Source: Candidatus Woesearchaeota archaeon
GTDB taxonomy: Archaea; Nanobdellota; Nanobdellia; Woesearchaeales; DATGWN01
Length of the DNA stretch: 56,862 nt
Assembly (NCBI GenBank): GCA_047603125.1
Contig: JBLKOU010000003.1
Coordinates: forward strand, 1-56,862
Direction of reading: 5' to 3'
The position numbers are program-made. Numbering within the stretch: the first letter of the stretch is position 1; each line of letters starts with the position of its first letter. Positions 42,001 through 45,000 of the stretch are shown piece by piece.

Positions 42001-45000
42001 ATTTCGAACTTCATAGTTTTTGTTTGCTTGGTTTGTAATTACCGACTCGATTTGCGCTTTCACGACTGTTTTCTTTTTTGTATCAGTAACATAAATTGTT
42101 TTTGCACTTAAGAGTTTAAATTTCGTATTTCCACCAATAGTGCGAACAGAACGTTTTTTATCAACATCAACTTTTGGTAGCAGAGCATCATTTACTCTTG
42201 CATATTGACGTGCTTTTCTATACATTCGTTTGCGTCCACCGGATGCTTTTCTCAAACTCTGTGTTCGATCATTTGCCATGGAAATCGAAAATCGCGACCC
42301 ATTTATAAAGATTACCATATTTGAATTTAACAGAAACATAACCTTTTTAAAGCACCCATGAATTCGTGATATATCGTTACGAGGTAACGGGGGATTTTAT
42401 CATGGAAACGTCACGACCATTAGATGCTCTCAACGCAGCACGAAATAAGCGCGTAATTGTTGAGCTCAAAAACGGAAAACAACTAATTGGAACACTTAAA
42501 GCTTTTGATATTCATATCAATGTATCATTGGACGACGCTGAAGAAAGAGAAAACGGCGAAGTAAAACGAAAAATCGGATCCACATTCATTCGAGGCGATA
42601 CGATTATTTTAATAACGATAGCATAGGCACGAAACCATGAGTAAAGGAACTGCATCACAGGGTAAGCACGGACGAAGCAAAAATCACATTATTTGTCGAC
42701 GTTGCGGTGCTCATGCAATGCATAAAACAACAGGTATTTGTGCATCATGTGGTTTTGGTCGCTCTGCAAAGATGCGATCATATGCCTGGCAAAAGTAAAT
42801 ACTATCTGACAAGTCTTTTCACAACCGAAAATCTTTCAATTTTTTCTTCAATTATTTTTTAAAAAGACTCTCCATTCTAAACCTATGGCATTATATGAGA
42901 TTCGAACACTCTATTCAGCAATAAAAACCTATACATTTGTTTTTGGCCTCGGGGTAGCATCAGGAATGTACTTAGGATACCAAGTATTTCACCCGAAAGA
43001 GTTTCGCCTTGAAACTCCACCTAAAAAAATCCAGAAATCAAATAAAGACCAAGTACTTTACTATTTGCATGAACGAGAAGCTGCTCGAACTTATCAAAGA
43101 AAAGAACCCATATGCAAATATCCCAAAGATACAAAAAGCATATGAGTTTGCAAAAAAGGCTCACGAGGGGCAAAAAAGAAAAACTGGAGAGGATTTTATT
43201 ACGCACCCCCTCGAAGTCGTGAGTGTTCTTGTCAAACATAATTATACAAATACAAGTACTATTTGTGCTGCACTTTTGCACGATACCATCGAGGACACGA
43301 CAAGCACAATTGAGCAAATCGAGCAAGAGTTTAGCTCTAAAGTCTCAAACATTGTCGACGGATTAACAAAAATTGATAAAACACAAATTAGCTTTGAAAA
43401 ATACAAGGCGGAGAATCTTCGAAAGATTATTCTTGCAAGTGCAAAGGATATTCGTGTCATCATAGTGAAATTTGCAGATAGAATTGCGAATTTACAAACA
43501 TTGAGTACCTTTCGCATTGAAAAACAAAAAAGAATTGCCCAAGACACACTTACTGTGTATTCACCAATTGCTGAGAAAATGGGTATGTATCATATGAAAG
43601 CAGAGTTAGAAGATGCTGCCTTTTTATATTTACACCCGAAATTTTACAATTATATTAAAGAAAACATTGTACACACACATGAACAGCGTGAGCTTAAAAC
43701 AAATGAACTTATCACAATTTTAAAAGAATTCTTACAAAAGAAAAATATACCCGCGCAAATTCAAGGAAGGGCAAAGCATTATTATTCAATTTATAAAAAA
43801 ATGATTGAGGAAAATAAACCATTTTCAGCAATTTATGATTTATACGGTATTCGTATCATTGTAGAGCACGAATCAGAATGCTATCAAGTTCATGAATGTC
43901 TTCTTGATCTTTGGACACCTGTTGAACATCGATTTAAAGATTATATTAAAAAACCAAAGCCTAATGGATATCAATCACTTCATGAAAATTTTCTTTTTGA
44001 AGATAGAATGATTGAAGTGCAAATTCGAACAAGGGAAATGGATTACCTTGCTGAAAATGGTCCTGCAACACATTGGAGATATAAAGGGATTAATAGAGAT
44101 AAACAATTTGAACGAAAACTCTCCTGGCTTCGACAAATTCTTGACTGGAAAAGACAAAATGCACCACTCAAGCCCGAACTACAAAATATTGATGTTGATA
44201 TTTTTAAAAATGAAGTAATCGTTATCACACCTAAAGGCGACCCGATTCTTCTTAAAGAAAAATCCACACCTATAGACTTTGCCTACGCTATACACTCTAA
44301 AATTGGAGACCATTTAAAATCAGCATATGTCAATGATTCTATTGTTTCACTTTCCCATGAGCTCAAAAGTGGCGACATTGTTCGGATTGAAACAACAAAT
44401 AAGGCAACGGTTAATTCGTCGTGGCTTTCCATAGTCAAAACCAATCAAGCCGTGTATAAGATACGAAGAGCACTCTCTATAGATGCAGATAAAACGAAGA
44501 AAAAGTCCGCACCCGATATATCCAATGTCTATAATACTTTGCAAACATTTCGAAAATTAATAAAATCTAAAAACATAAAACTCTCTAAATGCTGCAATCC
44601 AAAAGAGATGGATGCAATTGTTGCATTTTATACAAAAGATAAGAAGAGCATCACAGTCCACAAACTTAATTGCCCCCACCAATACTCGCTCAACCCAAAA
44701 AATAAAGTTATCTTGCAAAAAACAGTGCATAAAAAGAAAAGTCAGTATTATCTGGATATTCTTATTGAGGAACGACCCGGTCTGCTTGTCGATGTTTTAA
44801 AAAATGTCTTGGAACATAAAATTCACATACACTCCATTACATCAAAAGATGCAAATCAATCAATACTTGTGAGCTTAACAATTTCAAAAACATCAAAAGA
44901 ACTTATTGAAAGGGCAGCAAAAGAGCTTCGAAAAATGGAAGGTATCGCTGATATTAAAATAAGCGACAAAGAATGATATGTTACCTATCCTCATACACAC

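Follow-up and report, generated by a model that had tools for sequence, protein, structure and literature searches.

A long RelA/SpoT enzyme with a shortened alpha-helical domain in a DPANN archaeon

Introduction

The DNA analysed here, a window of 56,862 nucleotides from a Candidatus Woesearchaeota genome, encodes a long RelA/SpoT homologue (RSH), which we refer to as rel. Passages of a 2011 census describe long RSHs as lacking in archaea and as transferring poorly (PMC3153485), and passages of two other papers report an absence of (p)ppGpp from archaea (PMC8646023, PMC10249747). The locus raises the question of whether such an enzyme can be archaeal and, if so, how it would be switched on in a cell with archaeal ribosomes.

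An earlier note on this DNA quoted the census wording correctly and went on to treat a long archaeal RSH as unrecorded. That second claim is not supported. The relevant passage of a 2021 survey gives the share with RelA/SpoT as 41.7% for Woesearchaeota, 21.3% for Pacearchaeota, 19.0% for Nanoarchaeota and 69.0% for Diapherotrites and predicts a bacterial origin for these DPANN genes (PMC8407392), and NCBI and JGI already name homologues 'RelA/SpoT family protein [Candidatus Woesearchaeota archaeon]'. The presence of RelA/SpoT genes in DPANN is already in print and in databases. The genes of the survey are the same as those described here, with the same inferred bacterial origin; its passage gives percentages alone, pooling long and small forms, without domain anatomy, hydrolase state, neighbours or mechanism. 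Our literature search, for which subscription journals were mostly out of reach, found no description of the anatomy of archaeal Rel, of hydrolase loss or of the small neighbouring gene that we call X94; long forms from archaea may be included in the tables of a census of 24,072 genomes (10.1101/575399).

Results

The rel gene belongs to an archaeal genome

Archaeal-only genes lie within 0.3-4 kb of rel on the same contig (Table 1), with the eL37 gene 270 bp upstream, in a genome whose completeness is scored at 100% and its contamination at 0.98%. The region is matched at 99% or better by overlapping contig pieces from three lake-water DNA runs, one of which could be the source sample itself. 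Homologues also lie on one complete chromosome of an archaeon and in one single-cell genome (L198, L210). The identity of rel to bacterial Rel, approximately 43%, is what a bacterial contaminant introduced by binning or assembly might show, but against these observations such a source is extremely improbable, in agreement with the earlier note. The gene is real and archaeal.

A motif scan for homologues returned at least 120 stretches, and among the matches listed the titles were mostly Woesearchaeota, Nanoarchaeota, Nanoarchaeia or archaeon. Many of the stretches are titled 'Methanosarcinales', which we suspect to be a placeholder, and about 10 of the 80 matches listed are bacterial. The order Woesearchaeales, to which the earlier note assigned the genome, is consistent with these titles. 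Searching for related loci with the rel protein alone gave one bacterial locus. One RNA run yielded a single 173-nt contig, to which we attach no weight as evidence of expression.

Table 1. Coordinates of rel, its linker, neighbouring genes and the small synthetase. Positions are in the window except for the last row, which lies on contig C12.
Feature	Position	Strand	Basis
rel, 635-aa long RSH	43069..44976	+	translation, profile matches, predicted model
Linker of ~40 residues, rel residues 469-507	44473..44589	+	6yxa alignment, linker measurement, model
X94, 94-aa all-beta protein, no known family	45504..45788	-	recurrence beside rel, co-occurrence, model
Kae1 (KEOPS), archaeal	39175..40161	-	profile match; ~2.9 kb from rel
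Ribosomal protein eS8, archaeal marker	41899..42339	-	TIGR00307, 103.3 bits (cut-off 78.25)
Sm/LSm protein, archaeal marker	42366..42626	+	profile matches
Ribosomal protein eL37, archaeal marker	42637..42798	+	NF003214, 83.9 bits (cut-off 71)
TYW1 wyosine synthase, archaeal context marker	50583..51686	+	profile match
Small SYNTH protein, 288 aa	C12:8311-9177	-	single SYNTH domain

Domains and active-site residues of rel

The open reading frame contains no internal stops. Its domains follow in the order HD (residues 24-173; Pfam HD_4, E 3.8e-40), SYNTH (233-340; RelA_SpoT, E 4.4e-37), TGS (383-440; PF02824, E 2.4e-18), the first helix of the alpha-helical (AH) domain (459-468), a short linker, a zinc finger and an ACT/RRM domain (approximately 559-634), and the protein passes TIGR00691 with 563.5 bits against a cut-off of 499.2. 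We recovered the same reading frame and profile matches that the earlier note had given, and found all of the HD, synthetase and zinc-finger motifs it quoted. The hydrolase retains the metal-binding residues H46, H71, D72 and D137 together with R37, E75, D76 and N141. In the synthetase the catalytic D257 and E316 are present, as are R234, K236, Y301 and H305, an RxKD motif (R288-F-K-D291) and the GYQSLH and EVQIRT motifs, and the zinc finger (CC/RIS) is made up of C508, C509, H531 and C535. The best solved match is B. subtilis Rel (6yxa, 388.9 bits). By hand count in that alignment the CCA-reading histidine of the TGS domain, H409, aligns with B. subtilis H420 and D257 with D264, both of which are essential according to the passages of PMC7797070 that treat them.

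The AlphaFold model (48-row alignment, pLDDT 86.3, pTM 0.76) makes all domains visible, with the helix at 459-468 followed by a disordered stretch at 474-487 (pLDDT below 50) and a short helix at 491-497. The folds closest to it are those of RelA on the ribosome, of full-length SpoT and of B. subtilis Rel. The C-terminal ACT/RRM part described earlier is borne out by the fold, as residues 559-634 form a beta-alpha-beta-beta-alpha-beta arrangement of mostly high pLDDT, that of an ACT fold, and many homologues carry PF13291 (ACT); the ACT_4 profile match of rel itself (561-630, 22.3 bits) falls under the cut-off of 27. The HD-SYNTH-TGS-ZFD-ACT order, the catalytic residues, RxKD, the TGS histidine and the CC pair are common to archaeal rel, B. 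subtilis Rel (6yxa/6htq) and RelSeq (1vj7). In contrast to Bacillota Rel, archaeal rel has lost about 80 AH residues, has a remodelled zinc-finger loop and an archaeal host, and its activity and ribosome coupling are predicted. From these features the protein is apparently a long, active Rel of a DPANN archaeon.

The AH domain is mostly missing

The earlier note had called this Rel complete, which by bacterial standards it is not. We measured linker length from the F-x-Y-x-x-H motif of the TGS domain to the CC pair of the zinc finger. The distance is 98 residues in rel. Of the 81 bacterial loci, 72 have a distance of 157-199, two were misparsed and seven gave no value. PF19296 does not match rel. 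Its linker takes the place of the approximately 115 residues of the bacterial AH core and second linker helix. The same holds across the archaeal copies, where the linker spans 89-105 residues in 69/70 loci (one unparsed), leaving some 80 residues of the tRNA-contacting helical domain missing in 69/69 measurable copies. PF19296 is absent from archaea-titled homologues and present in bacterial rows of about 720 aa. Long RSHs of the Rel[HS] type carry a full AH domain, so rel, which keeps the first helix alone, is a variant of this type.

Passages of PMC4974054 place the first linker helix under the tRNA acceptor arm, have the AH core pack on the D stem, and describe the zinc finger as binding the A-site finger and uS19; in passages of PMC7797070, TGS-Helical binds tRNA and TGS alone does not. 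Of these three parts the archaeal form lacks the AH core and retains the other two. Shortening is also seen in bacteria, in three Patescibacteria loci of one clade (linker 112-115) and in a Spirochaetota-labelled clade (114-129), so the shortening of the AH domain is not necessarily an adaptation to archaeal ribosomes. The Spirochaetota-labelled Rels (670-690 aa, for example the cluster of OQA99052.1) have a partly deleted AH domain and no PF19296; they differ from the archaeal proteins in keeping the bacterial zinc-finger loop and in a linker about 20 residues longer.

This loop reads T-R-G-R-G in bacteria and T-K-D-[GK]-K in archaea. R619/R629 contacts the A-site finger, and B. subtilis R619 is needed for that binding, in the relevant passage of PMC7058999. 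The arginine is not conserved at this position of the archaeal zinc finger: among 58 hydrolase-intact archaeal copies the R619-equivalent is Arg or Lys in 18 and Gly in 28, with Lys or Arg one position later in 41.

The hydrolase has been lost repeatedly

To compare residues we aligned 90 archaeal loci from 89 genomes, picked to include divergent ones. At least one of H46, H71, D72 and D137 is lost in 31 of the 90 copies, a share that is no frequency because of that choice of loci; in one of them, L335, the loss is perhaps an effect of a short N-terminus. On a tree made without the HD columns these losses amount to five changes, at least three of them forced by starred branches. Nine synthetase residues are invariant in the 90 loci apart from one K-to-N change, and the TGS histidine is kept in 90/90, the CC pair in 90/90 and the zinc-finger H and last C in 89/90. 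All 31 hydrolase-dead copies keep the TGS histidine, the CCHC set and the synthetase residues (one K-to-N). Judged from this alignment, the catalytic and sensing residues of archaeal Rel have been under long-term constraint. Our bacterial set, in which the gammaproteobacterial members are in part probably SpoT, is equally conserved (TGS histidine 89/89, CC 83/83 aligned), so conservation of the histidine and the CC pair does not prove use of the ribosome. SpoT is held not to need it.

A dead hydrolase with an intact synthetase and C-terminal domains (CTD) is the pattern of E. coli RelA (5iqr, 5kpv), and the inactive hydrolase of RelA[hS] is found in these 31 relatives; the window's rel differs in that its hydrolase is intact. 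It does not group with SpoT either, being distant from the gammaproteobacterial rows in every tree, and is the one long RSH of its genome, in which a profile search gave no second HD_4 match. The RelA pattern of these 31 copies calls for a tight external switch.

We searched 28 hydrolase-dead genomes with HD_4, a search that could overlook a divergent hydrolase. No second match was found in 22, several of them near-complete (G028, G373, G344, G175), while two had matches under the cut-off only and four a clear one. Among hydrolase-intact genomes 12/52 had a second match over the cut-off. According to a passage of PMC3153485, RelA or a small synthetase is never alone in any bacterium; in contrast, the archaeal dead forms, which arose separately, mostly come without a second RSH hydrolase in these searches. 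A strict motif scan, perhaps too strict, found no Nudix gene adjacent to rel in flanks of 1.5-2.5 kb at 70 loci.

The only other SYNTH gene of the genome encodes a small protein with one SYNTH domain, no HD and no CTD, the make-up of a small alarmone synthetase. It had been described as RelP/YjbM-like. The single SYNTH domain, common to YjbM/RelQ and RelP, and the best solved match (YjbM, E 1.2e-12) agree with this, but it scores 46.6 against the YjbM equivalog, far below the cut-off of 320. It differs from YjbM/RelQ/RelP in a C-terminal extension of about 110 residues and in reading NYTAHH at GY-x-S-x-H. A toxSAS toxin-antitoxin pair would form a conserved bicistron with an antitoxin gene; beside this synthetase lie a DsbA-like gene, on the opposite strand, and an upstream MutS-like ORF. 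Such extra small synthetases are sporadic among the genomes checked, and this one is probably a sporadic extra and not a fixed part of the system. Of the working (p)ppGpp system proposed earlier, the part that stands is the long Rel, with its catalytic residues, TGS histidine and zinc finger intact.

Distribution and origin

The long form is present in 105/301 genomes of the order (match at E 1.2e-77 or better), a count that takes in about six copies truncated where a contig ends, a single shorter form and two unpublished genomes, G245 and G183. Across the phylum, a threshold of E 1e-40 gives matches in 113/251 high-quality genomes, and 27 of these 113 belong to other orders of the class. All these counts include related genomes, which are not independent, and a gene may be missed in a draft. 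Presence follows families, being near-universal in f94 (27/28), f68 (8/8), f131 (6/6) and f60 (6/6) against 0/22 in f44 and 0/5 in f32, and the SYNTH domain was absent from 9/10 rel-less genomes checked. Several neighbours recur: Kae1 is the divergent upstream neighbour in 11/70 archaeal loci, a ThiF-like gene adjoins rel in 11 loci of other orders of the class, and GAPDH lies beside it in six loci of f94. In the gene tree families are mostly clades and orders are interleaved, so descent was not purely vertical; one genome has two copies.

The archaeal proteins form one clade in four trees, at 0.962, 92, 97 and 99 (the last with Bacteroidota left out), where supports are SH-type values from quick searches. 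The value is 82 in a small-set tree, and with the N-terminal and TGS columns alone the clade is weak or absent (40, or split). In one tree six long-stemmed Bacteroidota rows fall inside it. The varying support and these six rows are what several independent transfers from bacteria, each followed by a similar shortening, would predict; the four trees, and archaeal linkers that are uniform at 89-105 where those rows have 171-179, make such a history improbable. The archaeal long Rels most likely form one old clade, and the transfer from bacteria that the earlier note considered the obvious origin is supported, as the survey passage also predicts (PMC8407392).

The sister of this clade shifted with sampling, from Patescibacteria to Bacteroidota and then to 18 short-AH bacterial proteins (SH-aLRT 99, Bacteroidota left out). 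A patescibacterial donor, taken from the first tree, was dropped after 44 more Patescibacteria loci were added. In an AU test, a tree that places the short-AH Patescibacteria rows with the archaea was not rejected (p 0.09), and convergence in AH shortening between the two is favoured, not shown. The Bacteroidota sister was unstable across trees and its rows came from our own motif scan. Among the short-AH bacterial clusters one carried a readable taxon name, Spirochaetota; two trees, that with SH-aLRT 99 among them, treat five unnamed short-linker proteins as archaeal. We tentatively regard Spirochaetota-labelled proteins as the nearest sampled bacterial relatives. A stepwise loss of the AH domain, from about 175 to 120 to 100 residues, starting in a spirochaete-like donor, is offered as a lead only.

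A small gene tracks rel

X94 and rel occur together in 81 of the 301 genomes, rel without X94 in 24, X94 without rel in 12 and neither in 184, so that X94 is found in 81/105 rel genomes and 12/196 rel-less ones; these counts leave out two weak partial rows, G116 and G231, take in G245 and G183, and carry no p-value weight because kin share labels. The two go together within families f26, f79, f98 and f123, and not in f95, f30, f32 and f86. In at least 20 of the 81 genomes, picked by hand, X94 lies no more than 1.1 kb downstream of rel, on the same strand in 16 (11 families) and inverted in four, which belong to the family of the window's genome. It occurs in other orders (f140 9/9, f143 3/3) and in the hydrolase-dead f94 (9/10). 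It was not found in the rel-bearing families f138 (0/8), f60 (0/2) and f152 (0/2), nor in the eight Patescibacteria genomes searched.

X94 has 405 homologues, of which the named ones are hypothetical proteins, all but one archaeal. The model is all-beta (pLDDT 90.2). Pfam gave no family for the window's protein and one weak stray row among five members; NCBIfam gave weak rows alone, far under cut-offs. An atlas search returned no match at 0.9 or above, the PDB had nothing under E 0.7 by sequence, and fold searches gave a best Z of 3.3 with none at E 0.001 or better. These negatives do not show a new fold. From gene order and co-occurrence we infer a functional link, with X94 a candidate partner, regulator or effector of rel. 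The plain alternative is shared ancestry of a gene block.

Discussion

How might an archaeal cell use such an enzyme? The account towards which we lean, by a small measure, is that the ancestor of several Nanoarchaeia lineages acquired a bifunctional Rel of bacterial type in a single event, and that this enzyme, having shed its AH core, is activated by uncharged tRNA on the ribosome. It would since have been mostly inherited, for which the family-wise presence, the conserved neighbours and the ordinary codon usage of rel (41st percentile among 135 ORFs of similar size) speak. Off the ribosome the enzyme would be a net (p)ppGpp hydrolase. When translation is starved, the zinc finger and ACT domain would bind where the A-site finger and uS19 form a bridge in the archaeal 70S ribosome, and His409 would read the bare CCA end of uncharged tRNA, whereupon the synthetase would make pppGpp from GTP. 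We take the two states from B. subtilis Rel, which in passages of PMC7797070 is a net hydrolase off the ribosome and a synthetase when locked by uncharged tRNA. The genome holds the docking elements named in the passage of PMC4974054, namely full-length 23S helix 38 (in our own reading), the uL11 N-domain and uS19. The retained first AH helix, the conserved synthetase, TGS and zinc-finger residues and the RelA pattern of the hydrolase-dead copies speak for the ribosome-sensing step; the missing AH core and the R619 position, Arg or Lys in 18 of the 58 copies, speak against it. With no bacterial RNA-polymerase route in the cell, the output would likely be a GTP drain and the inhibition of GTP-binding translation factors or purine enzymes, and may act as a dormancy switch for a host-dependent cell. 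GTPases are (p)ppGpp targets in bacteria. This genome has one PRTase, one GMPR/IMPDH-like enzyme and five Nudix genes. Activity, ribosome activation and targets are here inferred.

It is also possible that Rel works apart from the ribosome in the manner of SpoT, the C-terminal domains serving self-regulation and responding to a protein or metabolite signal such as X94 or an ACT ligand, with the AH core lost because tRNA contact no longer mattered. The absence of that core in every measurable archaeal copy, the remodelled zinc-finger loop and an X94 that tracks rel and was not found in the eight Patescibacteria genomes all fit this proposal. We nevertheless consider it unlikely, though worth serious weight, as bacterial Rels (the Patescibacteria and Spirochaetota-labelled ones) have shortened the AH domain too, the TGS histidine persists in all 31 hydrolase-dead forms, and f138, f60 and f152 have rel where X94 was not found. 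A different product or target, such as another pyrophosphorylated nucleotide or the clearing of alarmones from bacterial hosts or neighbours with synthesis a minor activity, would ease two observations: no known bacterial target turned up in the genome, where guanylate kinase was not found, and synthetase-only copies occur without an RSH hydrolase in 22/28 genomes, which is easier if the product is harmless. The RxKD motif and guanosine-site residues are standard, and it is the hydrolase that decays rather than the synthetase, which disfavours clearance as the main job; we regard this as distinctly improbable.

Beyond the single-entry, ribosome-coupled Rel that we prefer, a wider proposal is a true stringent response of Nanoarchaeia on their archaeal ribosomes, run by a Rel that lacks the AH core, with X94 as adaptor, regulator or receptor, and with several RelA-like lineages in which a non-RSH enzyme removes the alarmone. 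As a whole this is rather doubtful. If true, it would break the rule by which an RSH with synthetase alone requires an RSH hydrolase.

The importance of the locus is limited, as the presence of such genes was already in print and in databases; the parts for which our literature search found no description are the anatomy of Rel, the loss of the hydrolase and X94. X94 is a concrete candidate partner of Rel, and the hydrolase-dead lineages pose the question of what degrades the alarmone. With a long Rel in about one third of an archaeal order, it becomes testable whether the archaeal ribosome activates Rel, whether tRNA sensing needs the AH domain, and which targets the alarmone would have where there is no bacterial RNA polymerase.

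Variant forms of long RSHs

One archaeal genome (G359) encodes two long RSHs (L153 and L333), of which one is a full form with a dead hydrolase, having lost at least one metal-binding residue of the HD domain, and the other retains an intact hydrolase and is without part of the zinc finger. A shorter archaeal RSH of ~565 amino acids (L170, L206) matches only through the TGS domain and the first helix of the alpha-helical (AH) domain, and lacks the CC pair of the zinc finger. Within the Patescibacteria we found four Rel forms (loci L274, L301, L304; L275-L316), which are full-length (~720 aa), AH-shortened (~675 aa), ACT-less (~625 aa) and TGS-terminal (~490 aa).

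Other genes of the window and genome

A Pfam search gave no match for the three short ORFs that flank rel, each with a hydrophobic N-terminal stretch; the 89-aa ORF looks lipoprotein-like. Nor did Pfam match the 76-aa protein, which is made up of two near-repeats, GFLYF/YIDKxGDIxR. The C-terminal half of the preflagellin-peptidase-like (A24) protein carries an unusually long charged insert, and a CNNM/CorC transporter gene adjoins that of the 368-aa protein. Elsewhere in the genome, the 23S rRNA match (G000:C7:10286-13876) spans 3591 bases against a model of 2987 positions. This excess hints at an intron, or at insertions, beyond the part that was aligned.

Features of the window and of the small-synthetase locus (L002, contig C12 of the same genome)
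Feature	Position	Strand	Remark
A24 preflagellin-peptidase-like protein, 457 aa	40493-41866	-	
76-aa protein	40208-40438	-	just upstream of kae1
Short ORF	42885-43145	+	flanks rel
Short ORF, 89 aa	44981-45250	-	flanks rel
Short ORF	45234-45446	-	flanks rel
368-aa protein	47145-48251	-	weak glycosyl-hydrolase match (DUF608, E 0.003)
MutS-like ATPase, 448 aa	L002:1961-3307 (G000:C12)	as small synthetase	directly upstream of small synthetase

Neighbours of rel in relatives

In one family (f94; L138-L142, L153) a hydrolase-dead rel is convergent with a GAPDH gene, with enolase close by in four of these loci. Elsewhere in the class, outside the window's order, a ThiF/E1-like gene adjoins rel (L117-L119, L123, L126-L130, L132, L133); it is divergent in 10 of the 11 loci, and a ThiI-like gene lies nearby in four. 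Within the window's own order it is Kae1 that occupies this place beside rel. Given this shared position, the ThiF/E1-like gene and Kae1 are probably both tRNA-modification genes.
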